This document shows, one piece after another, positions 707 through 22,590 of a stretch of DNA of 64,000 bases. Source of the DNA: Spirochaetales bacterium (GTDB lineage: Bacteria; Spirochaetota; Spirochaetia; JABMQR01); assembly GCA_018399255.1 (NCBI GenBank), contig JAGYPA010000017.1, positions 6,130-70,129 on the forward strand. Reading direction: 5' to 3'. The position numbers and the translations under genes are program-made. Below the pieces are notes generated by a model, which worked only from the letters and a program-made list of their open reading frames with translations, searched no databases and was not told where the DNA came from. Position 1 is the stretch's first letter. The number at the start of each line of letters is the position of its first letter.

Positions 707-1876
707 TTAGCTGAGATCGCCGGAAATCTTCTCAAGATACTGTTGCCAGTTCATAACGTGTATATAGTCAAGAGCATACGGTTCCGGGACTAAGCTTACG
801 ATAAAACAGGGCACTTCCGGATTGTCTTCATGAAAAGAAGCAATTCCACTGGTATCTCCACGGGAAATACGCGATTTGCTTTTGAATTCAACCGCAAGCG
901 ATAGGCTGCCGTCAATTCTGATCAGCAGATCAACTTCTGCTCCATGGTTGGTTCGCCAGTAATAGAGCTGATAATCAATGCCGGAATAGTCGAGGATCCT
1001 ATTGGTTTCCTGAACCATAAATTGTTCGAACAGTCTCCCTTTCAGGGTGGGGTCCACCGTTTTTCTCAAGCGATGGCAGAGGAAATTCGTCACCCCATTG
1101 TCAAAGAGATACATCTTGGGATGGCTGAGAAGTCTTTTTGTCGGACTTTTTCTCCATGCAGGAAGTCGTAAAGCAATCAGCGTATCTTCAAGAATCTCAT
1201 AGTACGACTGTACCGTACGGGTCGGCAGTCCTGCCTCTTTGCCGATAGATGTGAAATTTACAATCTCCCCGCAGTAAGCGGCAGTGAGATCAAGAAAACG
1301 GGTATACCCGCCTAAGTTGCGGACAAGTGCCTCCTGCTGAATCTCCTCCCGTAGGTACACCTCTACATAGGCTTTGAGTGTCTCTGAAGCATCCCTGGAG
1401 TTCAGCCCGTGAAGAGGGGGTAGAGTTCCCCAAACAAGCATGGTATCCAAATCTGTGGTTGCTCCATGAGCTGAATTGATTTCTTTCACGGTGAAAGGAT
1501 GCAAATGTCTTTTCAAGGCTCGGCCGCCGAGCATATTGGCTCCTTTCTGTTTGAGTTTCCGGGCACTGGAACCAGAGAGAATGAATTTGACGTTTGAAGA
1601 TTCAAGCATCAGATGAACATCATTGAGAAGGTCCGGAATTCGCTGCACTTCATCAATGATTATCCATTCACAACCATTGTTGATTTTCTCTTGAGCCTCT
1701 AACCTGAAAACAGCTGGATCACGAATATATCGGAAGAACGTATCGTTTTTCAGCAGGTTAACCATCCACTGATTTTCAAGGTGCAGCGATTTAATCCAGG
1801 TACTCTTTCCTGTCTGTCGAGGGCCAAGGAGAAAAAACGATCTTTCAGGCTTTGAAATTAATCTTTTAATCATCAT
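707..1876 (-). CDS. AAA+ ATPase with C-terminal DUF4143 domain
   Basis: Walker A motif GPRQTGKST near the N-terminus. Overall architecture is AAA_14 plus DUF4143. The start is placed at the internal MMIKRL, because the upstream ORF extension has no homology and crosses the divergent promoter. Confidence 0.75.
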   Translation of the reverse strand: MMIKRLISKPERSFFLLGPRQTGKSTWIKSLHLENQWMVNLLKNDTFFRYIRDPAVFRLEAQEKINNGCEWIIIDEVQRIPDLLNDVHLMLESSNVKFILSGSSARKLKQKGANMLGGRALKRHLHPFTVKEINSAHGATTDLDTMLVWGTLPPLHGLNSRDASETLKAYVEVYLREEIQQEALVRNLGGYTRFLDLTAAYCGEIVNFTSIGKEAGLPTRTVQSYYEILEDTLIALRLPAWRKSPTKRLLSHPKMYLFDNGVTNFLCHRLRKTVDPTLKGRLFEQFMVQETNRILDYSGIDYQLYYWRTNHGAEVDLLIRIDGSLSLAVEFKSKSRISRGDTSGIASFHEDNPEVPCFIVSLVPEPYALDYIHVMNWQQYLEKISGDLS

Positions 1877-2049
1877 GCAGGATTGTACGGTAAATATGCA
1901 GTCTTGTAAAGTAATGCCGGTCAAAAAGTAGGAAAACCGCATGAAAGTCGGCAGCTGGTCAGGGGGGGATGGTGTCAGGGGAGATGGTGTCAGACGCCGA
2001 AACACAATTCTTCCTTTTACAGCATTCATGCAGTATAATCGGAGACACT

Positions 2050-3396
2050 ATGAACATAGATACATTTGAATTGGAAATAGAGGAAAAGATCCTTGACCGG
2101 GGATATGATTATTGGCAGTCAGGTTCGGTGCAGAAGATAGTCCATTCTGAAGGCAACAGAATTACAGCTGTAGTCATGGGCAGTGAACCGTATCGCGTAA
2201 GCATTGAGCTGGATAAAAAGGGAGACATTACGCATTCCTGCACCTGTCCGTATGATTACGGCCCGATTTGCAAGCATGTAGTCGCCCTGCTGTACGAGAT
2301 TGAAGAACGGCAGCTCAACAATTCCGAACCGGGGGAACAAGGGGGCGACGGCGGTGGTGAGAGCGACGGCGGGAACGGGAACGGGAACGGGAACGGGAAC
2401 GAGAACGGGGATATCGAGGTGGAGGGTGAAGACCGGGACGACTTGAGCAGACTTGAGGAAATCCTGGGAAATCTGGAAGCAAGAGAATTGCGTGCGCTAG
2501 TCCTTGAGCATGTCCGGCATGATCTTTCCTGGGGAAACGATCTTCTGGGAAGATACAGCGAATCGGATGAGGAAAGCTATCATCATTATTGCGCTATGCT
2601 TGAAGAGCAGCTTGATGCTTGCAGGGGGCGTCACGGGTATATCGATTACCATCAGGCAAGCATGGCTGGAGATGAAGCCTCAGATATGGTTGATAGAGCA
2701 CGAGTGCTGATCGGGGACCAGAAATTTGACCAGGCAATCCCGATGCTTCACGCTGTCTGCACGGTAATGGCGGAGGGCATTGAAGAGGCTGATGATTCCG
2801 ACGGCAGTATCGGCGGGGCAATTGAGGATGCAATAGACTGCTTTCAGGAAATGGCGGTAGATCCCGACTTGCCGGATGCAATTCGGATCCGACTGATTTC
2901 TCTGCTGACCGACCAGGAGCTCCTCAGTACTCTGTCAGATTACAGCTGGGATTCCAACCTGCTGAGTATCCTTCCCCATCTCGTGGAAACCGCGGAAGAG
3001 GAAAAGCAGGTGCTTTCACTGCTCGCGGACCATTACGGCGCTGCTGCCGACAGCAGCGTGGACGAAGGCGTCCGGCAAGGTTCCTGGAACAGATCGTATA
3101 TGGCCGAAGAGGCGGCCAGAATTATGCTTGCCCTCTTTCAGCGACGGCGAAGTCCTGCAGAGATTGAAGCCTTCATCCGGGCACATACCTACATGCCCTC
3201 TTTTCGCAGACTTGTACTGCAGCAGCATCTTGAACGGGGGGAATATCAGGAACTGTACAGAGAAGCTGAGGAGGGAATCATACAGGATGCCGGCTTGCCC
3301 GGACTTGTTCGTGAGTGGACGGGCTGGATTCTCAAAGGAGCCCAGGCTTCAGGAGATACAGACAGGGTGAGAGAGTCGGCATGGAAGGCACGCTGA
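2050..3396 (+). CDS. SWIM zinc-finger domain protein with an in-frame (GN)n low-complexity tract
   Basis: C-x-C-x7-C-x-H motif (HSCTCPYDYGPICKHVV), the canonical SWIM signature. RBS ggagacacta precedes ATG 2050. A GNGNGNGNGNEN tract is encoded by the gggaac tandem at 2371-2412. Confidence 0.7.
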   Translation: MNIDTFELEIEEKILDRGYDYWQSGSVQKIVHSEGNRITAVVMGSEPYRVSIELDKKGDITHSCTCPYDYGPICKHVVALLYEIEERQLNNSEPGEQGGDGGGESDGGNGNGNGNGNENGDIEVEGEDRDDLSRLEEILGNLEARELRALVLEHVRHDLSWGNDLLGRYSESDEESYHHYCAMLEEQLDACRGRHGYIDYHQASMAGDEASDMVDRARVLIGDQKFDQAIPMLHAVCTVMAEGIEEADDSDGSIGGAIEDAIDCFQEMAVDPDLPDAIRIRLISLLTDQELLSTLSDYSWDSNLLSILPHLVETAEEEKQVLSLLADHYGAAADSSVDEGVRQGSWNRSYMAEEAARIMLALFQRRRSPAEIEAFIRAHTYMPSFRRLVLQQHLERGEYQELYREAEEGIIQDAGLPGLVREWTGWILKGAQASGDTDRVRESAWKAR

Positions 3397-3848
3397 CGGT
3401 TGGGGATCAGAAACTACTGATTTGCCAGTATCCTGAAATCCACGACTTCAGCCGGACTGGCCGGAAATGCGAATACGCTGTTTGAGGGAAATGTCCGGGA
3501 ATGACCGTTTCCACACCCGGCTGATACCCCTCTATATCCACGAAGGACTGTTCGACCAAACTCTGGTACGCCAAATCAAAGCCGCGACCCGATGTCGGGA
3601 AATGTATCCGTTATGGACAGTATCTGCTTCCTCAATACTTTGTGAAGAAATGGCAGAGCTGGCTGAGGGCTTGTGCTGAAACAACTCTCTTACATAGCAG
3701 TCGGCCGATATATGCCGGGCAGCGCGGTTTACTGAAGGCTCTCCGGGTACATGGCGCGAAACGACAGGCAAAATCCATAGCATCCCGGTTACTGGGCTAT
3801 ACCCCAACCGTCCGGCGATGCGCGACGGAACTTCGCAAGGGCGGCTTT

Positions 3849-4012
3849 TAACCGCCTGGCCTCGGCTTTTCAGCCAGCCGCCTGGCCTCGGCTTACAGCC
3901 GCCCTGGCCTCGGCTTACAGCCGCCTGGCCTCGGCTTACAACCGCCTGGCCTCAGCTTTACAGCCGCCTGGCCTCGGCTTACAGCCGCCTGGCCTCGGCT
4001 TACAGCCGCCGG
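3849..4012. repeat. About 8 tandem copies of a 21-bp unit (GCCGCCTGGCCTCGGCTTACA), followed at 4060-4092 by (cccccagat)x3
   Basis: Direct reading. Lies in the convergent intergenic region between the SWIM gene and the 639-aa gene. Confidence 0.85.
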
Positions 4013-4100
4013 AGGTCCTTGAAGCAGACTGCATACTGCTGTCAATTAAAGCGACTCTCCGTAAGCTTCTACCCCCAGATCCCCCAGATCCCCCAGAGAC

Positions 4101-6020
4101 TCACTCCGCAGAAGCTTCTTCCGCCTGAGGAAACAGGACAGCCGCCAGCTCTGTCCGCTGCACACAGTACTGCCCGGAAGCGAGAGCCTCAGGAGTCGGG
4201 CGTTCCCTCAGTGAGCAGATGCCGTTTCTGCAGAGACTCCGGTAGACAAACCGGCTGTAGCGCTCAATGAACAGCTCGTAGGCAGACTGCTGATCATCCC
4301 CCCCATCATCCTGCGCCCCATCATCATCTACCCCATCCCCATCATCAACAAACCCATCATCATCAATATATATATCATCCAGAAGCTCATAGAACTGATT
4401 CAGGATTTCAAGGGCATAGGTGCGGACAGCAATCCAGCGATTCCCGATGGTGTGGAGTAGGGTAATGGTCATATTCATGATGAAATACCCCTCGAAATCA
4501 TCAAATTGAGTTACAAACAGATGTTCAATGTAATTTCTCGGATCCTCCCTGAAATCTGCCTGTCTCTGGGGGTGGTGTACCAGACTGGAGAAGATGCTCA
4601 AACTTACATCAGGATTATAATCCGCCCACAGGGTATACTCCTCAGAGCGGTGAGTGAAGCGCGACTTCATCATCAATGACAGATTGAGAGGCGGATCGAG
4701 AAGGTATGCCTGCTCCATTTCCCTGATCCGCTGGGGCAGCCCTTCAGATGCAAGGAGGTGCTCGGATTGTTTCAGGATTTCGAGTCCCTCACTGATGCTT
4801 TCACGATGGTTTTCGAGGAGGCGTTCAAGATGGTTCAACTCATCTGGGTTGCCGGCTGCAGCCTGCTGTATGGCATTGATTATCCCCCTCATGCGTGAAA
4901 AGAAATCCTCCCCTTTCCTGAAGGGGGCGAGGTAGGAGTCAAAAGGCGGGGGGCAGTGGTCATGAAGGGTGGTGAAGTGGTAGTAGACTTGTGATACTGA
5001 ACCGTCCGGGTGGAGGTCACGGGGTTCGCCGCCGTTTTTCAGTTTGAGCAGCTCCAGGCTGAGATAGAAATCATACCGGGAGTGAGAGAGCAGAAGGGCC
5101 TTTCCGGTATCGTTACACAGGGTAATTTCAGGTTGATAGTTACTGGTGGAGACCCAGAGTGAACGCTTTTTCGGGTTCATGTTGTAGGTTTTCAGTACGC
5201 TCGGGGCTGTCCGGTCTCTCAGTTCTACGTCTGTTCCCCGATAGCTGACCCTTTCGAAGCCTTTTCTGGTTTCCCGCTTCCACTTTCCCGGGAGAGCGGG
5301 CAGTTCCTCCAGGGGAAACTCAGCCCAGTAGACGGAATCCGGCTCTCCGAAAGTGCGGGGTATGTGAACTGAGTCTATCGCGTTGATCGTGAAGAAGTCC
5401 AGATAGCGCTCCAATATCAGTTGAGTAAGCGTTACTGTTTCGTTTTTCGGGTCTCGGAGGCTCCTGGTGTACCAGAGGAAATCATCGATGAGCAGGTAAT
5501 AGCCGTATATGATACCTTTTGGCTGGTAACAGACTCCGTTGAAAACAATCCAGGCAATGAAGGTTTGTTCCGTATCAGAATTACGCGTCGCTAATTCGGT
5601 AAGCTCCGGGCTGTAGAGAATTACTTCTTCTCCTGTGAGCGTATCCTGCAGCTGGTAGGTGTCTTCGGGGAGGGTATCGATAATCTTTGCAATAATCCAG
5701 TGCGGTACATGAGCCCTGCAGTTGGTGAGTATGGTTCTAGACTCGGGCGAGAGCCATTTCTGATATTTCTGCAGGAATTTGGTGAGCGCAAAGCGGTCTG
5801 AAAGGATGGAAGCAAGGATAAAGGTTAGCAGATGGAAGTCAGCTTGGTAGGCGTCTTCGGAGGCTATCGGCGAGTCGACATCCTTTTTTAGCGTATGGTA
5901 GATCTCAGAGCTGCGCAGGTGAGTCTCGGCAAATTGTTCTGCGAATTCTTCAATTTCATCAAAATGCTCATCCAGTCTTAAGCTGGCTGCAAGTATCTCT
6001 GCTGTAGTTGGCGTCTTCAT
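4101..6020 (-). CDS. Hypothetical 639-aa protein with an acidic D-rich linker; paralogue of 27802-29682
   Basis: Long uninterrupted ORF. Shares colinear blocks with the 626-aa ORF at 27802: TFIAWIVFNGVCYQPKGIIYGYY vs TLFITLILDNGESLQTIGIIHSYL; HLFVTQFDDFEGYFIMNMTITLLHTIGNRWIAVRTYALEILNQFYELL vs SLFEETFDRFGPTIMSSLFLILLEQGDRWVSVRSCGIEILKLFHQVL; ERYSRFVYRSLCRNGICSLRERP vs QFSRFVLMSLCSNGLLELSERP. No known domain recognised. Confidence 0.7.
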   Translation of the reverse strand: MKTPTTAEILAASLRLDEHFDEIEEFAEQFAETHLRSSEIYHTLKKDVDSPIASEDAYQADFHLLTFILASILSDRFALTKFLQKYQKWLSPESRTILTNCRAHVPHWIIAKIIDTLPEDTYQLQDTLTGEEVILYSPELTELATRNSDTEQTFIAWIVFNGVCYQPKGIIYGYYLLIDDFLWYTRSLRDPKNETVTLTQLILERYLDFFTINAIDSVHIPRTFGEPDSVYWAEFPLEELPALPGKWKRETRKGFERVSYRGTDVELRDRTAPSVLKTYNMNPKKRSLWVSTSNYQPEITLCNDTGKALLLSHSRYDFYLSLELLKLKNGGEPRDLHPDGSVSQVYYHFTTLHDHCPPPFDSYLAPFRKGEDFFSRMRGIINAIQQAAAGNPDELNHLERLLENHRESISEGLEILKQSEHLLASEGLPQRIREMEQAYLLDPPLNLSLMMKSRFTHRSEEYTLWADYNPDVSLSIFSSLVHHPQRQADFREDPRNYIEHLFVTQFDDFEGYFIMNMTITLLHTIGNRWIAVRTYALEILNQFYELLDDIYIDDDGFVDDGDGVDDDGAQDDGGDDQQSAYELFIERYSRFVYRSLCRNGICSLRERPTPEALASGQYCVQRTELAAVLFPQAEEASAE

Positions 6021-6524
6021 GGTATCTCCTCATTACGCATGGAATGCTGCTGATCCCGTTCCCCAGAACGGTGAAATCCGTCATAGTCAGAGGAAATTTC
6101 AATATTACGAAGTATTTTGAAATCAGCTCGTCAATCTCGGAAAATTCATTCTACCTGCTTTTACCATCGCTTGCCAAGTTTCCGACAGCCTGCTTGCATT
6201 GAATCGTTTGCTTCTGAGCCAGCCCACATACACACAAAATTGCAGAACAGATGGGAAACTTTGATGCTATCGAAAAAGTAGGCACGAAGAGGTGAAAAAG
6301 GCTGAACCACCTCTCACGTCGACATAAAACATACAAGTCACACGAGTCAATGCGGTAGGCGGGTAAGTAACTCCTTCCCGAAAACAAGTAGCCTACACCG
6401 AAACATCTACTCATGCGACATGTGTAAATCGAACCGACCTGCATCAGTGAAAATTTTCGATTTTCTCTTTTCCTTAGCAGGGTCGCGCGCTGAGGAGCGA
6501 TAAGAAACCTCCAGTAAAATAGTA

Positions 6525-6585
6525 AAAACCGTAAAAACCTGTAAAATTGTTGACGGACAGAAAAAGAAAGGTAGAATGTACTCTG
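6525..6585 (+). promoter_or_regulatory. Putative sigma70-type promoter with phased A-tracts upstream of the sensor kinase gene
   Basis: TTGACG (6550) is followed about 16-17 nt later by TAGAAT. Upstream lies gtaaaat-a-gtaaaaacc-gtaaaaacc-tgtaaaattg, with A-tracts at helical phasing like an UP element or curved DNA. Confidence 0.35.
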
Positions 6586-6616
6586 TGTTCTTGAAATTTT
6601 TCAATGCAGAGAGACG

Positions 6617-8338
6617 ATGCCCATGAAGCTGTCGGTTAAACGTTTTCTCATAATCAATAGTATTTTACTCATTTTTTTGCTTTCAGGCGCCGTCAGTATC
6701 CTGTACCTGGGAGTTTCACATATAACAACCGAAATGGCGGAAACGTTCAGTTCAGAAACACTCTCTAAAATTGCCGGTGATTTTTCCATGCGACTGCGGG
6801 GGTTGAGCCGCTTTGCCGTGCAGCTCGGCACGGACAGTGATATTATCGCAGTAAATGAGGAAGAAGAGAATCTCTGGGTATACAAAGATATCCTGAATCA
6901 GCTGCAGCGGTATGCTGCACTCAACGAGACCGAGAGCCGTCTCACCCTTTTTCTCGGGCAAAAAGGGAAAGGACTTTCATCACACGACAACCTTTTCCCC
7001 ATTGATGCAGAGTATCTTGCAAAAGAAGCTGAATACCCCAACATGTGGTATATCAGGAAAGGTCCGTCCTCCGAGGAAAGCACGCTCAAATTTTTTTTTG
7101 TCAATAGTCAGAATGACCTGGAACAGCAGGTTTCTATCTTGGTGGAAATAGACTTTGCCTATCTCAAGCAGCTGCTTTCAGGATTGAAAATAACAGGCGG
7201 CGGCACTGCGTTTCTTGTTGATCCTCACGGAAATGAACTGATAAGCGGGGATTTTGAAAAAATCCAGGAAGCCGTGAGCGAGGACCTGCTGGTTAACAGA
7301 GATGAACAGGAAGGCATTGTCTATGCCAAAGATAAGCAATTGCGCCTGCTGTATACCGAATTGTCAGGAACCGGTCTTATTCTAGGTATGGCATTCACCG
7401 ATTCTATGTTCATGGAACCTGTTCAGCGCGCCAACAGATTCGTACTGCTGCTCTTTTTCGTTGCGGTGATTTTACTCATAGCTCAGTTTCTCTTCCTCTA
7501 TCTTTCAATCAGGACTCCTCTTGGCACCTTGCGGAAGGGAATGCTCTCTGTGGAGCAAGGTGACTATTCCAGAGAGCTGAACTCGCACTGGCTCCTGGAA
7601 ATTGACTATATTTATCATCAATATAACCGAATGGTCCGAAGAATTGAATCTCTGCTCAATGAAGTGAAACTGGAACATCTGAGAACTCAGGAAGCCGAGT
7701 ATAAATTTCTGCAAGCTCAGATAAACCCCCATTTTCTCTATAACAGCCTCTACTACATCTATCAGATGAGCATGGCAGGGGATAGTGAAAATACAGCAGA
7801 GATGTCAATAGCCCTGGCTAGAGCTACTTTAAGCGGCTTCCCGAGCCAACAAGCCGGTGGTTCAGCGCAGGCAGAACTGGAAAACATCACAGTCTACATG
7901 AAAATTCAGGAGCTGCGTCATCCGGACAGGGTTTCATATGAGGTCACTGTTGATGAGGAGGCGCTCCATACTGAAGTTCCTCGTCTCTTCGCTGCCGTAT
8001 TTATTGAAAACTCACTTGTTCACGGTATGGAGGCGGCGGATAGAACAGTCCATATCAGCATATCGGCAAAAACCGGGCATCACGGTCTTGAACTGGTCAT
8101 TGAAGATAATGGCCCCGGAATTCCAGAAAGCAAGCTGATTGAGATGAATCGTCTGCTCAAGGAACAGCCGGAAAAGCTGACCGGGTGCGGCATTAGAAAT
8201 CCATGTCTGAGACTCCGGTACCGTTATGGACCACATGCGGGAGTCAAGCTGGTTTCCCGCCGGCCGTATGGGCTGACCGTGATCTTGAACATACCGGAAA
8301 CGCCTCTACGTTCCTTCCGGATATCGGAGCAAACCTGA
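6617..8338 (+). CDS. Sensor histidine kinase, YesM/LytS-like (two transmembrane segments, HAMP, His_kinase, HATPase_c)
   Basis: N-terminal transmembrane helix, extracellular domain and a second transmembrane segment, then the His_kinase motif FLQAQINPHFLYNSL and a HATPase region (VIEDNGPGI). Confidence 0.85.
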   Translation: MPMKLSVKRFLIINSILLIFLLSGAVSILYLGVSHITTEMAETFSSETLSKIAGDFSMRLRGLSRFAVQLGTDSDIIAVNEEEENLWVYKDILNQLQRYAALNETESRLTLFLGQKGKGLSSHDNLFPIDAEYLAKEAEYPNMWYIRKGPSSEESTLKFFFVNSQNDLEQQVSILVEIDFAYLKQLLSGLKITGGGTAFLVDPHGNELISGDFEKIQEAVSEDLLVNRDEQEGIVYAKDKQLRLLYTELSGTGLILGMAFTDSMFMEPVQRANRFVLLLFFVAVILLIAQFLFLYLSIRTPLGTLRKGMLSVEQGDYSRELNSHWLLEIDYIYHQYNRMVRRIESLLNEVKLEHLRTQEAEYKFLQAQINPHFLYNSLYYIYQMSMAGDSENTAEMSIALARATLSGFPSQQAGGSAQAELENITVYMKIQELRHPDRVSYEVTVDEEALHTEVPRLFAAVFIENSLVHGMEAADRTVHISISAKTGHHGLELVIEDNGPGIPESKLIEMNRLLKEQPEKLTGCGIRNPCLRLRYRYGPHAGVKLVSRRPYGLTVILNIPETPLRSFRISEQT

Positions 8339-8339
8339 T

Positions 8340-9593
8340 ATGAAGACGTTACTGATCATAGACGATGAACCGATGGTAATCCAGGGACTTGTACATGATA
8401 TTCACTGGGAAGAGCTGGGTTTCTGTGATGTGCTGAGTGCAGGCAACGGAGTGCAGGCCCTTGAGATCCTGAGAAGTAAAAGAGTCGATATTGTCATATC
8501 GGATATACGTATGCCTGAATTAGACGGACTTCAGCTGGCCAGACTGGTGCACCAGAATTGGCCCTTTGCCCGGCTTATTATTCTCTCCGGATATGATCTG
8601 TTCTCTTATGCTCAGGAGGCTGTGAAATATCATGTGTTTCGCTATCTTACAAAACCGACTCCCTATCCGCTTCTGGTTGAATGTGTAACAGCAGCCCTGC
8701 AGGATCAGAAATCACAAATTGATCGTATGGAACATGCGGTGAATCTTCTGGAACGGCTTGAGCGATTGATTCCCCGGGTTACCCGGAATATGCTGCAGAA
8801 GGTTATTGTTGACGGAGAAGATCTTACGGCTTTTGACTGGGGTGAATTACGGGAATATATCCCCTTTGTTAATGAGAATACTGCTGTTATGCAGGTTCTT
8901 CTGCACTCTGGAAAGCAGCAGGTGCCTGATATTGAGTGGCTGAGGGAACAGGCTTTCATACAGACCCAGACAAAAGAGTTCGAGATGCTCTATATCCCGC
9001 TACTTATGGAGGGGTCCCTGCTGCTGGTCTCAGTCTGGAAAGATGCGCTCAAAGCCCGGATGCTGCTTGAGCATTGGCAGAAAATGGCAGATCTATTGTT
9101 TCCTGTTGATGAATACAGCAGTTCGGTTCAGGTTGTTTTCAGCCCGATTCATCTACTTGAGGAATCAGGAGATGTCTACGTGAAACTGCTGGATATATGT
9201 CGGAAAAAGTCTGGGGGAAAGCAGGAGCCGGTGATGTTTTCCGGCGCCTGGGATAGAATGGATGTCCGGCCGCATCAGATGGTAGTTGAGGCTAAAAAGA
9301 TCATTGAGAACAATCTGGAGCATGATCTGTCCATAAGTGAGCTTGCGGAGAAACTCCACTTGCATCCGGGGTACCTATCATCGCTGTTTCGGGATTCAGA
9401 GTCGATAAGCCTGCAGCAGTACATCATTCGAAGAAAAATTGAACATGCAGCGGAGCTCCTGACAGAACCGGGGGCCAGGGTGTTCGAAGTTGCCCTAAAG
9501 ATCGGGTACAGCAGCCCGTATCATTTCAGCAGAATTTTCAAGAAAATCAAAGCTGTCTCTCCTAAAGATTATCAGCGGGGGGGCAGAGGATAA
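8340..9593 (+). CDS. Response regulator with receiver domain and AraC-type HTH (YesN-like)
   Basis: Receiver motifs (MKTLLIIDDEP..DIVISDIRMPELDG) and a C-terminal AraC HTH (YSSPYHFSRIFKKIKAVSPKDY). The start overlaps the kinase stop. Confidence 0.85.
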   Translation: MKTLLIIDDEPMVIQGLVHDIHWEELGFCDVLSAGNGVQALEILRSKRVDIVISDIRMPELDGLQLARLVHQNWPFARLIILSGYDLFSYAQEAVKYHVFRYLTKPTPYPLLVECVTAALQDQKSQIDRMEHAVNLLERLERLIPRVTRNMLQKVIVDGEDLTAFDWGELREYIPFVNENTAVMQVLLHSGKQQVPDIEWLREQAFIQTQTKEFEMLYIPLLMEGSLLLVSVWKDALKARMLLEHWQKMADLLFPVDEYSSSVQVVFSPIHLLEESGDVYVKLLDICRKKSGGKQEPVMFSGAWDRMDVRPHQMVVEAKKIIENNLEHDLSISELAEKLHLHPGYLSSLFRDSESISLQQYIIRRKIEHAAELLTEPGARVFEVALKIGYSSPYHFSRIFKKIKAVSPKDYQRGGRG

Positions 9594-9701
9594 CACTGCC
9601 GGCGGTGCAGCCTGAGATTTTTTCGGAATTCTTGAATAAGCGCAAATTATCTTAACTCAGGGCATTTCACTCAAAATGTTTTACACGTACCATGAGATAT
9701 C

Positions 9702-11424
9702 ATGAAAAATAATCCAAGGAGGATGGAGATGAAAAAATTGATGGTCTGGGTACTGCTGACTGTTATGAGTCTGGCAGTGATTTCAGCAGCCGGCAGCAAA
9801 GAAGCCGAAGTGTTGGAAATTCAGGAACGGGTAGGATCCGGGTATTTTCACAAGTATGAACCGGGCATCACGCTTACAGGAAACAGAATAAGTTCTGCGA
9901 CGGTTGATTTCGTCAATAATGCTTATGTGGAGTGGGCTGAAGAAGAGCTCGGCATCACCTATAAGCTGAAATGGACTGCCCCGGATGCTGAAACCGATCG
10001 TCAGAAGCTGACTCTGGCTATGGCCAGTAATGATCTTCCTGATATTATCAGCATTGAATCAGGAGACCTCTTTTCCCGTATGGCTAAATCCGGCGTTCTT
10101 AAACCCCTGAATGATCTGCTGGATACCTATGCATCTCCTCTGACCAATGAAAGGATAGAAGTCTATCAGGAAGCTCTGAATGGTAACTTTTTCTCTCTTT
10201 TTCAGATGCAGGGTGATATTTATGCCATGCCGGAAGCTTCAGATGTCTTCTCGTCAAACTGGTATGCCCTCTGGATGCGCGGTGATATTCCTGGCGGAAC
10301 TGGGCATGGAAGCCCCTGATACCATAGAGGAGTTTGAAGCCGTTTTGGCTGCCTATAAAGATGCCAATCCGGGACACGTCGGTATGGTATTCAACCAAAT
10401 CCCATCATGGAAGCTGAGGGCGTTTCCCAAGAAATGGGTGAAAGACAGTAATGGCGGTCTTGTTTACGGAAGCGTGCAGCCTGAAGCCAAGGCGACTCTG
10501 GAAAAACTGAACAGTTGGTACGAAAAGGATATCTGGATAAAGAGTACTTTATCAAGGATGACAGCAAAAATCGCGAACCCATGATTGCCGGCGACGCTTC
10601 TCTATTTACGGTAACTGGGTGGTATGTGCTCTGGCCGTTTCCGGATCTCTGGGCAAATGTGCCTGCCGCAGACATGGTGCACCGCTTATGCCGCCTCCCG
10701 GACCTGACGGAGGCAAGGTAATCATGCATGATATTAATAACGGCTATTTCGGTAGCGGCCGTGCAATCAGTGCAGCGTGCGAACACCCCGAAGCACTGGT
10801 GTTTATGCTGAATCAGAATGGATTCCCAATTCAGGTTTGACGGAGCCTTACGGGAAAAATGAAGACAGTAGGGTATGAATTCATGTATCCCTATGAACAG
10901 TGGCAGCAGCCAGTCAATCCCGAAGCGCCTCAGGAAGAACAAATATGGGAACTACCAGGTAGAAGGTCCGACAAATTCTGGAACTCCCACGCGTGGAAAC
11001 CCTGCAAATCTGCCTTTGATTCAAATATAATGAGGGCCCGTACGATCTGCTGAACAGGTATCTGGTAACAGCAAAAGCGTACAGAATGATGCTATTGATA
11101 CACTGAGTGTTCGGATCAAAATTGACTATACGGAGTACTTCTCAACCCCGGTCAGCAAGATGGAAGCGCATGTGAGAAATGTGGAAAATGTATGACCGAA
11201 TCAGGATAGAAGGGATTATTATCTACAATGAGTTTACAACGGCACCTACCCCGAGTATGGTGGATCGGCAGGCTTATCTGGATAAGATAGAAGAGGAGTA
11301 TTATACCAAAATCATCACTGGTGAGCTTCCTGTAAGCTCTTTTGATACATTTACTGCTGAGTGGGAAAAAGCTGGGGGTGCAGATATAACATCCGAAGTG
11401 AATGAATGGTACAAGACAAAATAA
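9702..11424 (+). pseudogene. Lpl-type extracellular sugar-binding lipoprotein (ABC solute-binding protein) broken by multiple frameshifts
   Basis: Six consecutive + strand ORF fragments (9702, 10180, 10515, 10619, 10859, 11179) in shifting frames together reconstruct one ~560-aa solute-binding protein. There is a signal peptide (MKKLMVWVLLTVMSLAVISAAGS), and the last fragment ends ...FDTFTAEWEKAGGADITSEVNEWYKTK. The intact paralogue at 45033-46724 ends the same way (FDTYVQDWYKLGGEKILGEINDL). Position immediately upstream of the two permease genes fits. Confidence 0.75.
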
Positions 11425-11608
11425 CCTTTGTACTGAAAGCAGGTAATCTATGATGGTCGGGGAACATACGGTCTCCCCGACCGGATACTATCAGCTGTCC
11501 GGCAAATAAACCGCTGCCGGCGGTACAAAAAGGAAAATCTCTATGCTGCTGCGCTGTCATCGCTCGGTCGGTCAGGCCGGAATTCGTTTGAAGAAACTGA
11601 AAAACTAT

Positions 11609-12493
11609 ATGACAGGGAACTATCCCCTCTATCTCATGATGATTCCGGCACTGGTTCTACTTGTCCTGTTCAATTATGTGCCGATGTATGGGATAATTAT
11701 AGCCTTTCAGGATTATATGCCGCTTTACGGCTTTTCCGGATCTCCATGGGTAGGACTGCGCTGGTTCTCGTATCTGCTGGACATGCCGGATGCACTGCAG
11801 GTTATTGTAAATACCGTCATCATAGCGATAGGGAAAATTTTGTTTTCCACTGCAGCTTCCATTCTTTTCGCTTTGCTGCTCAATGAATTGCGCGGGAAAA
11901 AGTTCAAGAAAATTGTCCAGACTGCGGTGTATCTGCCGCACTTTTTCTCTTGGGTAATCATAGGTGGTATTTTTGTTGATTTACTGTCATTGAATGGTAT
12001 TATCAATCAGTTTCTTCAGTGGATTGGACTGCAGAAACCTGTTTTTTTTCTTGGCAGCAACAGGTATTTTCGAGGCACCATGATTGGTCTGGAAATATGG
12101 AAAAGCTTCGGATGGGGCGCGATTATCTACTTGGCTGCCATAGCGAACATAAGTCCCAATCTGTATGAGTCAGCAGCCATAGATGGTGCAGGAAGACTGC
12201 GGCAGGCGGTTTCCATAACCCTTCCGAGTATTCTGCCCACGATCATCCTTCTGGCAACGTTGAGCCTGGGAAATGTGCTCAATGCCGGGTTTGAACAGAT
12301 CTTTGTCATGTATAACGAAGTGGTTTACGAAACGGGAGATATTATTGATACCTTTGTCTACCGAATCGGTCTTGAAAATGCTCAGTTCAGCCTTTCCACT
12401 GCGGTGGGACTGTTTAAATCTGTTGTTTCGTTTGTTTTGATAACCGGTTCATATTTGTTTGCCTACAAACGGGCAAATTATCGAATCTTCTGA
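11609..12493 (+). CDS. Sugar ABC transporter permease (LplB/YesP-like)
   Basis: NYPLYLMMIPALVLLVLFNY N-terminus and six predicted transmembrane segments. Paralogue of 46810-47718. The start may be TTG 11588. Confidence 0.8.
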   Translation: MTGNYPLYLMMIPALVLLVLFNYVPMYGIIIAFQDYMPLYGFSGSPWVGLRWFSYLLDMPDALQVIVNTVIIAIGKILFSTAASILFALLLNELRGKKFKKIVQTAVYLPHFFSWVIIGGIFVDLLSLNGIINQFLQWIGLQKPVFFLGSNRYFRGTMIGLEIWKSFGWGAIIYLAAIANISPNLYESAAIDGAGRLRQAVSITLPSILPTIILLATLSLGNVLNAGFEQIFVMYNEVVYETGDIIDTFVYRIGLENAQFSLSTAVGLFKSVVSFVLITGSYLFAYKRANYRIF

Positions 12494-12612
12494 TGTTTTC
12501 GCGAAAGGCCGGGATTACCGCCTAAATGCCGGCATGTGAAGGAATTCGGCATGTGAATGAATGCCAGTGAACAGCCAGCCGGCTGTGAAGGAAAAGGAGC
12601 AAGGGTAGTAAC

Positions 12613-13500
12613 ATGATGGTAGAGGATGCTTCTACGGGAGCAAAAATATGGAACAACAGCCTATACATTTTCCTTGGGCTGCTGGCTGCAAGCTGCATAC
12701 TCCCGGTGATTCACGTTCTGGCAGTCTCTTTCAGCAGCAAGGCAGCTTCTGCTGCAAATCTTGTTAGATTCACACCGGTCGGTTTCCATACCCGGGCTTA
12801 TCAGAAAGTTCTTACCAGTCCACTCTTTATCAGAAGTTTTGGTATTTCCGTACTCAGGGTTCTGGTTGGAACTGCGGTTAACATGTTCATGGTCAGCATC
12901 ACCTCCTACCCGCTATCAAAGGAGCCTGGGGAATTCAAGGGTCGACTCTTTTTTGTCTGGCTGATATTCTTTCCCATGCTGTTTACCGGCGGACTTATAC
13001 CCACCTATCTGCAGGTGAGAAATCTCGGTCTTATAGATTCCTTCTGGTCGCTCATCCTCCCCACTGCAGTACCCATGTTCAGCATTATCATCATGATGAA
13101 CTTTTTCCGGGGTATCCCGAAAAGCCTTTCGGAAGCTGCGTATATTGAGGGAGCAGGACATTTGACGGTCCTCAGAAGCGTTTACTTACCGATATCAACA
13201 GCAGCCATTGCAACCTTAACACTTTTTGCCGTGGTCGGGCATTGGAACGAGTGGTTTCAGGGGTTTATTTACATTAATGACACAGAAAGATGGCCACTGC
13301 AGACCTATCTGCGACAAATGCTTCTTCCTACAACGCTACAGAATCTGACGTTGGAGGATCTTGATACGATGCAGTATCTGTCGGATAAGAATTTCAAGGC
13401 AGCCCAGATATTTATTGCCATGATACCGATTCTCCTATTTTATCCGTTTCTTCAACGCTACTTTATCGCGGGGCTGACTCTGGGATCGGTGAAAGAGTAG
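12613..13500 (+). CDS. Sugar ABC transporter permease (LplC/YesQ-like)
   Basis: MalG-like permease with the EAAxxxG-type motif region (SEAAYIEGAGHL). Paralogue of 47734-48627. Confidence 0.85.
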   Translation: MMVEDASTGAKIWNNSLYIFLGLLAASCILPVIHVLAVSFSSKAASAANLVRFTPVGFHTRAYQKVLTSPLFIRSFGISVLRVLVGTAVNMFMVSITSYPLSKEPGEFKGRLFFVWLIFFPMLFTGGLIPTYLQVRNLGLIDSFWSLILPTAVPMFSIIIMMNFFRGIPKSLSEAAYIEGAGHLTVLRSVYLPISTAAIATLTLFAVVGHWNEWFQGFIYINDTERWPLQTYLRQMLLPTTLQNLTLEDLDTMQYLSDKNFKAAQIFIAMIPILLFYPFLQRYFIAGLTLGSVKE

Positions 13501-13536
13501 GAGCAGAAAAGAAAACGCAGGAGACTGGAGAAGACC

Positions 13537-15867
13537 ATGAGACTGATGAATGAAGCTTTGGATATAAGCACAGAATTCGATAACCCGACATCGACATTTT
13601 TTCAGATGGAAAAACTGAACAATTGGGATATGAACTCGCTGTCAGGCTCAATAACCTGGTGCAGAAAGATAAAAAAAGCACGACATGCCTTCAACCAGAC
13701 TTCCATGGCCTACGAGGATACAAAATCTTGGAGTTTTCCGCCCGATTACCCTGAAAAACCGGAACTTTTGTTTTCCTCTTTCCGTATTTCCCACTCGGTG
13801 TTCAGGGTTCGTATTGCATTACGTGAAATTGCCGAAAGTCAGGTGGAGGATGAAACGGGAATTCTTGTTGATCCATGTCTTGATGATCCCTCAGGATGGC
13901 AGACTGACGAAACAGAAGAACGTATCATTTTTTCTTCCCCCTCAATGATTGTGGAGCTGGTGCGTAATCCATTTTCTCTCGTGATCAGAGACGGTAACGG
14001 AAATCTGCTTACCTCCACCATACATCAGCACATGCAAACCAGTTTGCGAAATTCCGATGAACCAGTGTGTGAAATAGTTCATAACCAGCAGAGTTGGGAG
14101 AAGCGGGGGAGAGTAGCTTTTACTCTTTCTCATGATGAGCGTCTGTATGGGACCGGTGAATCTTTTACCAGCCTGAACAAGCGGGGACAGACAGCAGTGC
14201 TGTGGAGTCAGGATGCTCATGGGTGTCAGACAGAGCGATACTACAAGCCAGTACCTTTTGTTATGTCTAACCGTGGGTGGGGTTTGTTCCTGAATACCAC
14301 TATGCCGGCGGTGTTTGATATGGGAAAGACGTATGACCGATGTTTCGGGGTTTATGCAGGGGACCCGATAATTGATCTTTTTCTCTTTACTGGAACACCG
14401 GAGACCATGCTAACCGAATACACACGTATTACTGGACGTGCTGCTTGCCCCCCGTTGTGGTCCTTCGGTCTGTGGATGAGCCGCATCACGTACAAAACCA
14501 GAGAAGAAGTGGAAGCGGTAGCTGACAAAATGAGGACTGAAAAAATTCCCTGTGATGTCATTCATATCGATACAGGATGGTTTGAATCTGACTGGCGCTG
14601 TGACTTCGCGTTTTCACCGACACGATTTCCCGAACCGGAAGCAATGATTCACAGGCTGGCTGAGGATGGTTACCACATCAGCCTCTGGCAGCTTCCCTAT
14701 TTTACTCCCCGCAATCCTCTCTACCGGGAGCTGGTGGAAAACGGCTATGCAGTTGCCGGCCCGGGAGGGAGACCTCCGACCGATGATGCAATACTGGATT
14801 TTACAAACCCCGAAGCTTCAGTCTGGTATAAGAATCATATTCGCAATCTGATAAGCAACGGAGTATCGGCGATTAAAGCTGATTTCGGTGAAGCAGCGCC
14901 GTTAGCTGGGTGGTATGCAAGCGGATATGACGGAATGAAAGAACACAATCGGTATCCGCTGCTTTACAATAAAGCAGTGTTTGAGGCAACCTGCGAAGCT
15001 TCCGGTGAGGGGGTGATCTGGGGAAGGAGTGCCTGGGCAGGCAGTCAGAGGTATCCGGTGCACTGGGCGGGAGATGCCGAAAACACCGCATCAGCCATGG
15101 CTGCCACCCTGAGAGCAGGGCTTTCTCTTGGGTTAAGTGGGTTCACCTTCTGGAGTCACGATATTGGCGGGTTTGTTAAACCGAGTGATAAGGCATTGTA
15201 CCGCCGCTGGCTTCCCTTCGGTATGCTTACCAGCCATAGCCGATGTCATGGAGCGCCTCCCAAAGAACCCTGGTTCTATGACCGTGAATTTACCGATTTT
15301 TTCAGATATACTGTTGAGTTCAAATATCGGCTGATGCCGTACATTATGGCAGAGTCCATTGCTGCAGCCAATAAGGGCTGGCCGATGGTACGACCGCTGT
15401 TTTTCCACTATCCCAGTGATCGGACCAGCTGGTTTGTGGAGGATGAATATCTATTCGGGCGTAACATTCTGGCGGCACCGATTTTTTCTGAAGATGACGA
15501 TGCTCGCGACGTGTACCTCCCTCCCGGTCGCTGGGTGGATATACAGACAGATGCTGTATACGAGGGTGGTTTCTGGCATATGGTATCCGGAGGACGCCTG
15601 ATGATGCCAGTTTTTGTTCGCGAAGGAACAGTTGTTCCTCTGGTAGAGCCTGCTTGCAGCACCAGCAGGATAGACTGGGATTCTGTCACCCTCTACATAT
15701 GCAGCAATACCGAAGGTTCCGGCAGTCATTATTCATCTTATGCGGCATCCTATCATCCGGACATCGGTCTTTACGACATTGATACGGTTTCAGGCAGGGC
15801 GGTAGGTGCAGACCACATTATCTGCAGGAAAGTGTATTCGCTGGTTAAACCGGAGATGAGGCAGTAA
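13537..15867 (+). CDS. Glycoside hydrolase family 31 (alpha-xylosidase/alpha-glucosidase-like)
   Basis: GH31 catalytic region motifs: CDVIHIDTGWFESDW, GVSAIKADFGE and WAGDAENTASAM. 776 aa. Confidence 0.8.
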   Translation: MRLMNEALDISTEFDNPTSTFFQMEKLNNWDMNSLSGSITWCRKIKKARHAFNQTSMAYEDTKSWSFPPDYPEKPELLFSSFRISHSVFRVRIALREIAESQVEDETGILVDPCLDDPSGWQTDETEERIIFSSPSMIVELVRNPFSLVIRDGNGNLLTSTIHQHMQTSLRNSDEPVCEIVHNQQSWEKRGRVAFTLSHDERLYGTGESFTSLNKRGQTAVLWSQDAHGCQTERYYKPVPFVMSNRGWGLFLNTTMPAVFDMGKTYDRCFGVYAGDPIIDLFLFTGTPETMLTEYTRITGRAACPPLWSFGLWMSRITYKTREEVEAVADKMRTEKIPCDVIHIDTGWFESDWRCDFAFSPTRFPEPEAMIHRLAEDGYHISLWQLPYFTPRNPLYRELVENGYAVAGPGGRPPTDDAILDFTNPEASVWYKNHIRNLISNGVSAIKADFGEAAPLAGWYASGYDGMKEHNRYPLLYNKAVFEATCEASGEGVIWGRSAWAGSQRYPVHWAGDAENTASAMAATLRAGLSLGLSGFTFWSHDIGGFVKPSDKALYRRWLPFGMLTSHSRCHGAPPKEPWFYDREFTDFFRYTVEFKYRLMPYIMAESIAAANKGWPMVRPLFFHYPSDRTSWFVEDEYLFGRNILAAPIFSEDDDARDVYLPPGRWVDIQTDAVYEGGFWHMVSGGRLMMPVFVREGTVVPLVEPACSTSRIDWDSVTLYICSNTEGSGSHYSSYAASYHPDIGLYDIDTVSGRAVGADHIICRKVYSLVKPEMRQ

Positions 15868-15886
15868 GATCAATAAAGGATAACAT

Positions 15887-18670
15887 ATGGATATACAATG
15901 GTATGCTGCAGCGCAGGAGCTGACAGCACAGATGACGCTGGAAGAGAAGGCAAGCCTCTGTTCGGGAAAAGATTTCTGGAACCTCAAAGGCATAGAACGG
16001 CTGAATTTGCCCGAAATCATGGTCACCGATGGACCGCACGGGCTCAGGAAGCAGTCTGAAGAAACCGACCATGAGGGTTTGCGTCCAAGTATCCCGAGCA
16101 CCTGCTTTCCCCGGCCGTCACCATGGCCTGCACGTGGGACCCCGGGCTCATCGAAACCTTGGACGCCCTGGCCGGGAGAGCAGGGAAGAGGGCGTATCAG
16201 TAGTCTTGGGACCCGGGGCAAACATCGCTGATCGCCCCTGTGCGGGCGAAATTTAGTATTTCTCTGAAGATCCCTTTCTTTACCGGAGAATTTGGCCTTG
16301 GCCCACATCCGCGGAGTCAGAGCGGAGGCATCGGCACATCCCTCAAGCATTTTGCCGTAAACAACCAGGAAACCAACCGGCTGTTTATTGATGCCGTGGT
16401 CGATGAACACCCTGCGGGAAATCTACCTGCCTGGATTCGAAAAGGCGGTGAAAGAAGGGTCAGCCTGACACAGTCATTGCGCCTACAATCGCCTGAACGG
16501 CACCTACTGCAGTGAAAACGAATACCCGCTCACCACGATTCCCGGGATCAGTGGGGCTTTACGGGGATGGTCGTTTCCGACTGGGGCCGTAAGCGATCGG
16601 GTAAAGGAATTCAGGCCGGGCTGGACCGGAAATGCCCGCGAGCCGCGGCGAAAACGACCGCAAGATTGTTGAGGCAGTCAAGTCCGGTGCCCTCGCCGAT
16701 GAACTCCCCGACCGGGCAGCCGTCCGGATAACAGCCCTGATTCTCAAGTCGGCAGACTTCCCTCAAGGCATCAGACCCCCAAGGCATCAGACTTCAAGTC
16801 GGCAGCTTCCCTCAAGGTATCAGACCCTCAAGTCAGCAGCCTTCCCGGAATGCCGATCACCCCCGCAGCAGGCAAAGCTGATGAGCAGGGGCAGGGCGGC
16901 CGCATACAATCGGGATCAGCACCATAACCTGGCTCGAACCATCGCCGCCGAAGGCATCGTACTTCTCAAAACCAGGACAACCTCCTGCCGATCACGTGCC
17001 CAGGGAGGCAAACCCCCGCAAACCTCGAAAACAGATAACCCCGGCAAACCCCCGCACCCCCCGCAAAAAGATCGCCGTATTGGCGATTTCGCCCGGAACC
17101 CACGCTATCAGGGAGCAGGAAGTTCGGCAAGTAACCCGACACGCCTTGACTCAGCCCTGGATGCAATAATCGGCAGCCGAACCCTTTGGGCATGCCAGAT
17201 TGATTTTGCCCGGGGCTATGACCCCGACAAAACCGAAAACCCCGATATTTCCGGACACACCGGATACCCCCTGAAAACCCCGAAGCTTCCGACACACCGG
17301 ATACCCCCGAAAACCCCGAAATTCAGCCGGAAAAATCGGACCTTGCAGCAGAAGCCTGCAGACTTGCCGCAGCCGCTGACCTGGTCCTGCTGTTTGCCGG
17401 ACTGCCCGATTCCTACGAATCCGAAGGATTTGACCGCACCCACATGCGCCTTCCTGAAGAACATAACCAGCTGATAAGAGCCGTGGCAAAGGCAAACCCG
17501 AAAACAGCCGTAATACTCAGCAACGGAGCCCCGGTAGAAATGCCCTGGGCAGATTCAGTCCCGGCAATCCTGGAAACCTACCTGGGAGGCCAGGCCGGCG
17601 GCAGCGCCGCGGCAGATGTGCTATTCGGCAAGGTAAATCCATCCGGACATCTCGCAGAGACATTCCCCCTAATCCTGGCTGATACCCCCTGCTGCGAAAA
17701 CTTCCCCGGAGGCAGGTATCGCGTACAGTACCGGGAAGGCCTGCATGTCGGCTACCGCTGGTATGCATCCGCCAACAAACCCGTGCGGTTTCCCTTCGGC
17801 CATGGCCTCAGCTATACCACCTTCACCTTCAGCAAAATGGAGCTCAGCAGGCAATCGATAACGCTGAAAACAGCAAACACGCATCAAGAAACGACCCCGC
17901 TGCTCGAAGTCTCGGTAACCGTGAAGAACACCGGCCAACGGAGCGGCAAAGAGGTAGTCCAGATCTATATACGGCCAAAAAAGAGCTCAGTCTATCGCCC
18001 GGAAATTGAGTTGAAAGGATTCGCCAAAATACTCGTAGAACCCGGGGAAAGCGCAATCGTCACCATCCCCTTGGATGCCAGAGCCTTCTCCTTCTACAAT
18101 ACCGCCATAGGCGACTGGGCGGTAGAGACTGGAACCTACGAGATTCTTGCTGGAAGCTCATCGGAATCCATTCATCTCACAGCTGCTGTACAGATACGGG
18201 TCGATCGGCCTGATACGCGGGAGAGGCTCCTCAGGGAAAATTCGGCTTTTCTGGCCCCGGACATTGATGGGATAAGCTACAGTGACACAGTCTTTGCGGC
18301 TCTGCTTGGGCGGGAAATTCCTTCGGATGTGCCGCTGGAGGATGTTGTCACTCTTAATACACCGCTACGGGATCTGAGAGGGACCGTCGTTGGAGATCAG
18401 CTGCATGCAGGTCTGCTGGCTGGACTGGCGAACCTGTCCACCCCGGAAACCGACGATGTTCAAATCGGAACGGCTTTATCAGCAGTTGATGAAGCCACGA
18501 AGCGTTTGCAAATCAGGCAGAACCGGCAGAAAATGATCAGAATGTTTGAACGAGCTATTGAGGGGATCCCACTTCGGAGCGCATTCATGTTCAGCAGAGG
18601 AGCAGTTTCATTTGCTCAGTTGGAAAAAATGATCAGGCTCCTGAATCAGGAAGGAGGCGCCGAAAGATAA
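15887..18670 (+). pseudogene. GH3 beta-glucosidase (BglX-like), degraded by frameshifts and internal repeat expansions
   Basis: N-terminus [41 protein letters not shown] (GH3). The middle (HFAVNNQETNR.., ..IVEAVKSGAL.., ..HHNLARTIAAEGIVLLK..) is spread over at least 4 frames. The C-terminal 408-aa ORF 17444-18670 carries the GH3 C-domain and FnIII-like domain (AADLVLLFAGLPDSYESEGFDRTHMRLPEEHNQLI..PVEMPW). Pro-rich repeat tracts lie at 16745-16860 and 17240-17335. Confidence 0.75.
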
Positions 18671-19122
18671 ACGGGGGGAATCCGGCTCGCGACAATCCGG
18701 CAGCTCTGCGTATACTTCCCAAACGGAGCGAGAGGAGGAGGGGGCATTTTGATGGTTCCATTCCCGATAAGCCAATTCACAGAATTGGCCGTGCTGGGAT
18801 CGCGGGCAAGTTTCTACTTGCCTTAACAACATACCCCCCCCCTGAGTACTCTGCGGCCCCCTTAGGGGCGGCAAAGGAGTCGAAGCCTCCTGGGTCCCAA
18901 GCATTCCCTTAGGGAATGCCGCTTGCCCATGGTAAGCCGCTTGCCCTGGAGTATGATACCCTGTCAGCAGTATACCCTGTGGAAAACGATTACTCAACTG
19001 AGGCGGAAGCTGTGCTGGCAGTGCAGTCGCAAAGCAGGCGAACAATCTTGTTTTCAATCGTTACGCAGTGCTATTTTCCCTCAAAACTGAAGTTGCTGGT
19101 GCGGAGCAAGGTTGGCAACAGG

Positions 19123-19178
19123 CAACTCACCTACAACTCACCTACAACTCACCTTCAACTCACCTTCAACTCACCTCG
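19123..19178. repeat. Tandem 10/11-nt repeats (caactcacct)x5
   Basis: Direct reading. Downstream of vapC. Confidence 0.8.
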
Positions 19179-19910: not shown

Positions 19911-19972
19911 TGGTGTCTGACACCGTATCCCGCAAAAAAACCCTGTTAAATTTCGGAATCCGGTAACAGTCG
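19911..19972. repeat. 55-60-nt double-hairpin repeat element, copy 1 of 3
   Basis: TGGTGTCTGACACCGTATCCCGCAAAAAAACCCTGTTAAATTTCGGAATCCGGT: perfect inverted repeat GGTGTC/GACACC followed by a stem ATCCCGC...GCGGAAT with loop AAAAAAACCTGTTAAATT. Confidence 0.8.
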
Positions 19973-19983
19973 TCGAAATGCAG

Positions 19984-21480: not shown

Positions 21481-21554
21481 TGCCCTATCATATCGATCTG
21501 CTGCAAAAACAGCAATAATGTCGCTGGCAAAGATGTCCACAAGTAACAGCGAAC

Positions 21555-21594
21555 GGGCAGCAAGACTGCTGGAGGGCAGCAAGACTGCTGGAGG
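21555..21594. repeat. 2 tandem copies of the 19-bp unit GGGCAGCAAGACTGCTGGA
   Basis: Same unit as the 5-copy array at 22497-22590. Confidence 0.8.
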
Positions 21595-22496: not shown

Positions 22497-22590
22497 GGGC
22501 AGCAAGACTGCTGGAGGGCAGCAAGACTGCTGGAGGGCAGCAAGTCTGCTGGAGGGCAGTAAGACTGCCGGAGGGCAGCAAGACTGCAGC
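22497..22590. repeat. 5 tandem copies of the 19-bp unit GGGCAGCAAGACTGCTGGA, with no spacers
   Basis: Direct reading. The unit is itself semi-palindromic (GCAGCA/TGCTGG). Confidence 0.85.

Follow-up and report, generated by a model that had tools for sequence, protein, structure and literature searches.

Do the three adjacent genes at positions 707–6020 of a spirochetal contig form one functional module, and what is the largest of them, which encodes a protein of 639 residues? The stretch of DNA analyzed here, referred to below as the window, comprises 64,000 nucleotides (nt) of contig JAGYPA010000017.1 (positions 6,130 to 70,129 of the forward strand; assembly GCA_018399255.1) from a Spirochaetales bacterium. 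An ATPase gene, a SWIM zinc-finger gene and the gene for the 639-residue protein lie side by side in it, and a preliminary description of the sequence had proposed that, together with a paralog of the third protein, they constitute a module associated with defense or with a mobile element. Our analysis does not support a three-gene module. Instead, the region contains three separate things: a stand-alone ATPase gene, a decayed SWIM gene, and a member of a large protein family that appears to be undescribed. This family is probably a lineage-specific, diversifying accessory family related to genetic conflict, for which a SWIM-like protein is a facultative partner. All coordinates are positions within the window unless another locus is named, and designations such as L001, L009, L013, L017 and L022 refer to the related loci or contigs with which it was compared.

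Word-indexed homolog searches with the 639-residue protein returned only four and three close relatives, and a rerun with the alignment of these sequences added none. Scanning one genome per species in GTDB with a 7-sequence alignment gave two hits only, both in metagenome-assembled genomes of Spirochaetia, and a scan with a 10-sequence alignment gave seven metagenome loci, mostly short. When 1.84 billion cluster representatives were searched exhaustively with a profile, the number of relatives rose to 341 at E ≤ 1e-3, 71 of them with E values down to 1e-30 or below. Most of these proteins are 570–650 residues long and can be aligned from end to end. Wherever a member carries a source name, this is Sphaerochaetaceae, Spirochaetales or Pleomorphochaeta, and the annotation is 'hypothetical protein' in every case. 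The 639-residue protein has no match in Pfam, NCBIfam, PADLOC or PHROGs, a family profile built from 84 members has none among PDB sequences, and a lenient Pfam scan of 25 members was equally negative. Neither tblastn searches of plasmid and phage collections nor a search of IMG/VR detected the family, so the proposed association with mobile elements finds no counterpart on phages, plasmids or viral contigs. Judging from these searches, the family of about 600 residues appears to be undescribed, and its known members are to date confined to Sphaerochaetaceae and other Spirochaetales.

Several features attributed to the protein by the preliminary description were borne out. The lack of a recognizable domain agrees with the lack of any sequence or fold match. 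The paralog encoded elsewhere in the window is a full-length homolog (BLASTP E 4e-26), with an identity of 24% rather than the 27–30% that had been given. The acidic poly-D linker is real (residues ~552–575) and represents an insertion specific to the clade of the window protein. Two distant family members, P0094 and P0109 (1258 and 1265 residues), carry a PRiA4_ORF3 domain (1e-52) as a C-terminal fusion, which is preceded by a unique middle region of ~500 residues that matches nothing in the sampled loci. We also considered whether the family is related to the DUF6933-PRiA4 or SEC-C proteins encoded in the island, i.e., the variable region that holds the paralog, but profile comparison shows no relationship.

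To describe the fold we used an AlphaFold2 model built from a 127-sequence alignment, which has a predicted local distance difference test (pLDDT) score of 87.4 and a predicted template modeling (pTM) score of 0.71. An earlier model based on 7 sequences was poor (pLDDT 64), and Foldseek searches with it were uninformative. From the N terminus, the predicted domains are a five-helix bundle (residues 1–103), a small β-barrel (107–174), a mixed α/β middle region, a poorly predicted helical linker and a C-terminal helical domain broken by the poly-D insert. Foldseek searches of PDB and BFVD with this model found nothing at E ≤ 1e-3. The only consistent local matches are oligonucleotide/oligosaccharide-binding (OB) folds of ~65 residues of the IF1, cold-shock and S1 types (probability 0.9–0.97, TM-score ~0.6, root-mean-square deviation ~3.7 Å, E ~0.1). 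The OB-like barrel lies at residues 105–176. The barrel is the best-conserved segment of the protein (conserved residues D126, S137, N161, G162, C164, Q166, G169 and D180) and contains most of the conserved polar residues of the family. No residue constellation typical of a hydrolase, nucleoside triphosphatase (NTPase) or transposase was seen, nor were conserved catalytic-type residues outside the barrel, and the family is probably non-enzymatic. The same model and searches yielded no confident structural match to a housekeeping family, an outcome that neither refutes nor confirms the original proposal.

Family members are present in multiple copies at several loci, and some of the copies are decaying. 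In L022, eight or more whole or half copies are packed into 22 kb, L017 has two intact and two degraded copies, and L016, L019, L021 and L028 have tandem or remnant copies. Copies inside one locus are 31–56% identical and are therefore old paralogs rather than traces of a recently active element. Compared with L009, which is otherwise collinear with the window and 88–97% identical to it, the ratio of nonsynonymous to synonymous substitution rates (dN/dS) is 0.33 for the gene encoding the 639-residue protein and 0.22 for its paralog, i.e., about ten times higher than for UDP-glucose dehydrogenase (UGDH) in the same stretch (0.03). Both are real genes that evolve fast under purifying selection. 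The synonymous rate dS is itself very uneven along the collinear stretch (0.56 for the paralog, 0.10 for the SEC-C gene, 0.17 for the gene of the 639-residue protein, and 0.25 for UGDH), which suggests allele replacement or recombination at the paralog.

The association with SWIM proteins recurs beyond the window. Three divergent contexts contain a family member and a full-length homologous SWIM-like gene in convergent (tail-to-tail) orientation: the clade formed by the window, L009, L001 and L013 (family genes 59–89% identical), L017 (family genes ~22–29% identical), and L022. The five SWIM-like genes have in common the motif CTCPYDxGxxCKH and a C-terminal RPAM(R/K)DELRK, and the stop-to-stop gap of the pair is 45–50 nt in L001, L013 and L022. 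Within the first clade the arrangement of the pair is kept and the flanking genes are entirely different in each genome. Recurrent pairing with SWIM genes therefore holds for these three contexts, but not for most sampled family members, which have no SWIM neighbor.

Family neighborhoods are otherwise rich in toxin-antitoxin genes and in untested defense candidates, in line with the earlier proposal. The latter include PDC candidates of PADLOC, a set of 145 untested candidates derived by 'guilt-by-embedding' that includes PDC-S01 and PDC-S62. A Phd-Uma2 fusion (PDC-S03) is convergent with a family member in L005 and L014, AAA_21 ATPases adjoin members in L022 and L025, and AbiEi/AbiEii lie upstream in L017. 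Other neighbors include Phd/PIN, HEPN/MNT, SEC-C and DUF6933-PRiA4_ORF3 (PDC-S63) genes. Large genes without a Pfam match beside the members in L024, L028 and L030 were considered as relatives of the family or of the SWIM-like proteins and rejected, as the profiles do not match; several of them form a paralogous group of their own, and the sequences read start with signal-peptide-like N termini.

In the window itself the pair is degenerate, as the conserved C terminus is gone from its SWIM gene. The open reading frame (ORF) is a member of the Pfam SWIM family (PF04434; 5.8e-9, 35.7 bits versus a cut-off of 19.6), its finger motif CTCPYDYGPICKH lies at residue 64 of the protein counted from 2050, and the protein is 58–59% identical to intact 577-residue orthologs in L001 and L013. 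It does not extend to the full length of the ~577-residue SWIM-like family, with the RPAM(R/K)DELRK end missing. Residues ~447–577 of the orthologs are still recognizable by tblastn downstream of the premature stop, spread over all three frames and interrupted by two in-frame stops; the lost part amounts to ~130–150 residues, about the last quarter of the protein. The SWIM gene of L009 is open throughout in a single frame; in a DNA alignment with it, the 450-nt tail has ~12 indels of 1–2 nt, and the 240 nt upstream have none. Homopolymers are not the main sites of these indels, and the other examined genes of the window read through intact, which we take to indicate real decay after a truncating mutation rather than sequencing error. 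The retained 5′ part has a dN/dS of 0.47 relative to L009, the highest among the genes compared. The SWIM gene of the window is dead or at best truncated. In L017 the SWIM-like gene (L017 12647–14503) is also disrupted, with its N-terminal 48 residues in another frame, and upstream there are remnants of a second such gene (L017 1068–2314). Decay in the SWIM-like family is thus repeated and not confined to the window. The gap between the SWIM pseudogene and the gene for the 639-residue protein is filled by a 21-bp repeat unit, CCGCCTGGCCTCGGCTTACAG, for which shuffled sequences give no chance matches. In L009 a related unit occupies the same place with 2.8 copies, and the repeat is absent from the short gaps of L001, L013 and L022.

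What, then, is the relation of the ATPase to this pair? The protein matches AAA_14 (2.4e-21) and DUF4143 (1.6e-31) in Pfam and belongs to PDC-S01 (PDLC04790, 1.7e-57, positions 28–386 of 422), a single-gene candidate that is reported to rank fourth by frequency among 'defense' calls across prokaryotes and awaits validation. The earlier statement that none of the three genes maps to a named defense system thus has to be modified, in that the ATPase is PDC-S01 and the N terminus of the SWIM protein matches PDC-S62, and it stands insofar as both are untested candidates. In favor of a single three-component defense or mobile-element module, a spacer of ~170 bp separates the divergent ATPase and SWIM genes, both families are PADLOC candidates, and the cluster of family and SWIM-like genes in L022 also contains AAA_14/DUF4143 genes (two full, one fragment). 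However, no ATPase lies beside the orthologous pairs in L001–L003 and L013, where sugar-metabolism genes flank both sides (absence was judged only where the SWIM-side flank is visible, which excludes L009), and phmmer detects no similarity between the window ATPase and the copies in L022. PDC-S01 is so common, and is defined as a single gene, that chance adjacency is likely. With the SWIM gene decayed in the window and, in addition, searches of phage, plasmid and viral collections negative, we consider such a module very unlikely and regard the ATPase as a stand-alone gene, a chance or loosely associated neighbor rather than a demonstrated part of the pair. Even less probable is that the family is a transposase, or the passenger of a degenerate mobile element, although this would explain its multiple, scattered and degraded copies, one of which, in L021, adjoins a DDE transposase; SWIM fingers are, moreover, known from Mutator-type transposases. 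Against this idea stand the low identity of copies within one locus, the lack of terminal inverted repeats around the gene or the pair, the lack of a conserved acidic triad and of any Pfam transposase or integrase match, and the conserved syntenic positions of some copies. An insertion sequence or transposon was rejected on similar grounds, as flanking inverted repeats are missing and the paralogs are 24–56% identical, not near-identical.

We instead read the family, with a probability of about one half, as part of the accessory genome related to conflict, where it would be a non-enzymatic component for binding or sensing, with a SWIM-like protein as its partner in some lineages. The OB-like barrel would be the ligand-binding site, most likely for nucleic acid, and the proteins would take part in genetic conflict as subunits that bind or sense, either in defense against phages and mobile elements or in the control of toxins. 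In some lineages the family protein may work with the SWIM-like protein encoded tail-to-tail with it. A more specific version, in which the two proteins form an unrecognized two-component conflict system specific to Sphaerochaetaceae, seems unlikely to us at present. In such a system the diversifying protein, whose predicted fold is unlike solved structures, would sense invader nucleic acid through its OB-like pocket, the SWIM protein would couple sensing to a response, and the tandem arrays would provide a repertoire of specificities. Several observations weigh against a role in conflict. The OB-fold similarity (E ~0.1) is below the Foldseek significance threshold, and an effector domain (nuclease, protease, NTPase or pore) was recognized in neither partner. 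The convergent orientation is unlike that of a co-transcribed module, and no SWIM neighbor accompanies the members in L005, L014, L018 and L023–L030 or the window paralog, in a sample of ~15 independent contexts that were not randomly drawn. The defense flavor of the neighbors rests largely on untested PADLOC candidates, and the ~600-residue family itself is missing from defense catalogs; on PRiA4_ORF3, SWIM proteins in defense and the PDC names, the literature search returned only the PADLOC source paper and surveys. The main rival, suggested by solitary members at syntenic positions beside core genes, is a lineage-specific housekeeping or regulatory function, e.g., as a nucleic-acid-binding or metabolic regulator, with no role in conflict; SWIM and toxin-antitoxin neighbors would then merely mark insertion-tolerant gaps between operons. 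One subgroup is conserved beside pyruvate kinase (pyk) and an NDK-domain gene (L023, L024, L028 and L030), and the L029 member lies between thyX and uvrC, positions that look more like those of core lineage-specific genes. Several members are solitary among sugar-metabolism, other metabolic or core genes, the family is chromosomal only, and its dN/dS is below 1. Such a function is harder to reconcile with the many paralogs and decayed copies per locus, a dN/dS ten times that of a neighboring enzyme, SWIM pairing that recurs and survives relocation, the two fusions to PRiA4_ORF3, and the lack of conserved catalytic-type residues outside the barrel. We treat the housekeeping or regulatory role as the less likely alternative and favor the binding or sensor role in conflict.

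The three ORFs named in the preliminary description, 707–2029 (−), 1969–3396 (+) and 4101–6020 (−), were all recovered, and the two divergent ones proved to be over-extended at the 5′ end. The SWIM gene starts with the ATG at 2050, where the ortholog alignment begins. The start of the ATPase is most likely the methionine of MMIKRL at 1876, as judged from residue 64, where the AAA_14 match sets in, and from a promoter-like site at 1910–1882 on the minus strand. With these starts the two genes do not overlap and are separated by the ~170 bp mentioned above. Another promoter-like site, for the gene of the 639-residue protein, is located at 6177–6148.

Table 1 Coordinates of the genes and repeats discussed, with the basis of each assignment.
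Feature	Position	Strand	Remarks
AAA_14 + DUF4143 ATPase	707..1876	−	389 residues from likely start; open frame extends to 2029
SWIM zinc-finger gene, intact 5′ part (448 codons)	2050..3396	+	Ends at premature TGA
Decayed 3′ part of SWIM gene	3397..3851	+	tblastn with intact orthologs; DNA alignment versus L009
21-bp tandem repeat, 7.2 copies	3852..4010		Tandem Repeats Finder score 241; sits between convergent genes
Gene of the 639-residue family member	4101..6020	−	No family match; AlphaFold2 model; profile relatives
Paralog of the 639-residue protein, 626 residues	27802..29682	+	BLASTP; family hidden Markov model E 1e-230
Orphan Phd antitoxin, 86 residues	29688..29948	+	Pfam PhdYeFM 1.8e-7; TIGR01552; downstream of paralog

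Comparison with L009 clarifies how the two family genes of the window are related in position. In L009, the pair of SWIM and 638-residue family genes directly abuts a stretch with a PIN toxin-antitoxin pair, SEC-C, PRiA4, epimerase, UGDH, the paralog and Phd-PIN; thus, the two paralogs of the window belong to one variable region, which is split here by a 13-kb block. This block (6206–19155) and two others, at 21521–23682 (2.2 kb) and 31073–41517 (10.4 kb), are present in the window and not in L009; they are large indel polymorphisms around the island. Genes of the 13-kb block include a sensor kinase/AraC regulator and a truncated GH3-type ORF, and the 2.2-kb block carries a HEPN/nucleotidyltransferase pair. 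The Phd antitoxin beside the paralog is indeed an orphan, as initially described, since no toxin follows it. In L009, Phd is followed by a PIN (VapC-type) toxin gene (compared region L009 12243–12717), and this DNA is missing in the window, which has the antitoxin of the Phd/PIN pair with its toxin gene deleted. In place of the PIN gene, the short segment 29949–30145 contains tandem repeats of 13 and 21 bp.

Other observations concern the island and the window as a whole. The gene at 23712–24869 encodes a DUF6933 + PRiA4_ORF3 protein of 385 residues with a PDC-S63 match on its N-terminal part; the L009 allele has only 196 residues. A palindromic element of ~65 nt (GGTGTCTGACACCGTATCCCGCAA...TTGCGGGATCCGGTACCAGACA) is repeated in intergenic gaps of the island, at 19912–19975, 23445–23510 and 27447–27513, and L009 has it too. 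When folded, the sequence gives a long hairpin (−33 kcal/mol, z −8.4); it may be an element resembling repetitive extragenic palindromes or a bidirectional terminator; a scan of 1–32000 against Rfam gave no match, this element included. Short tandem repeats with periods of 8–49 bp are unusually frequent across the window. Intergenic sites include 127–213, 16744–16846, 17233–17321, 19123–19176, 22495–22587, 30081–30135 and 31241–31319, and some repeats lie within ORFs, such as the 36-bp repeat at 25778–25879 that adds a repeated peptide to the epimerase.

If the family is indeed a component of conflict or immunity, it would represent a system whose main protein has neither sequence nor structural relatives in current catalogs, and bacterial SWIM proteins, the roles of which are largely unknown, would gain a new kind of partner. 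Expanded families that are restricted to one phylum, here in poorly cultivated spirochetes, escape catalogs of defense islands built mostly on well-sampled phyla. The value of this particular window is lower, with its SWIM partner decayed and its ATPase a common stand-alone gene.

How does the locus compare with known systems? The ATPase itself does not differ from PDC-S01, having the same domains and a full-length match, and it stands beside the pair of SWIM and 639-residue proteins as a neighbor rather than a demonstrated part. The resemblance of the SWIM protein to PDC-S62 is partial. The two share the N-terminal ~220 residues, including the CxCx7CxH finger (6.6e-16 for the window protein and 1.9e-18 for an intact ortholog), a match that covers only about positions 8–223 of the 566 in the model, whereas the helical remainder and the C-terminal RPAM(R/K)DELRK lie outside it. 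Furthermore, PDC-S62 is a single gene by definition, whereas the SWIM gene considered here is recurrently paired with the ~600-residue family, and its copy in the window is truncated.

Bacterial SWIM proteins pair with SNF2 helicases, e.g., in ywqA/ywqB of B. subtilis. The present locus likewise has a SWIM zinc-finger gene adjoining a large partner gene. However, no SNF2-family helicase is adjacent to the SWIM gene in the window; its neighbors are the ATPase and the 639-residue protein, neither of which is a helicase, and the partner has no NTPase motif or Pfam match. In addition, pairs of SWIM and SNF2 genes are co-directional, whereas the pair in the window is convergent.

The family as a whole can also be compared with tandemly expanded, fast-evolving accessory families such as the immunity-protein arrays of polymorphic toxin loci. 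It differs from them in that its proteins, with ~600 residues and multiple domains, are far larger than typical immunity proteins, in that family members were not seen next to a toxin carrying a domain for secretion or delivery, and in that some members are single-copy at conserved positions. What the family shares with such arrays are tandem paralogs, decayed copies, a high dN/dS, toxin-antitoxin neighbors, and fusion with another uncharacterized domain of the island, PRiA4_ORF3.

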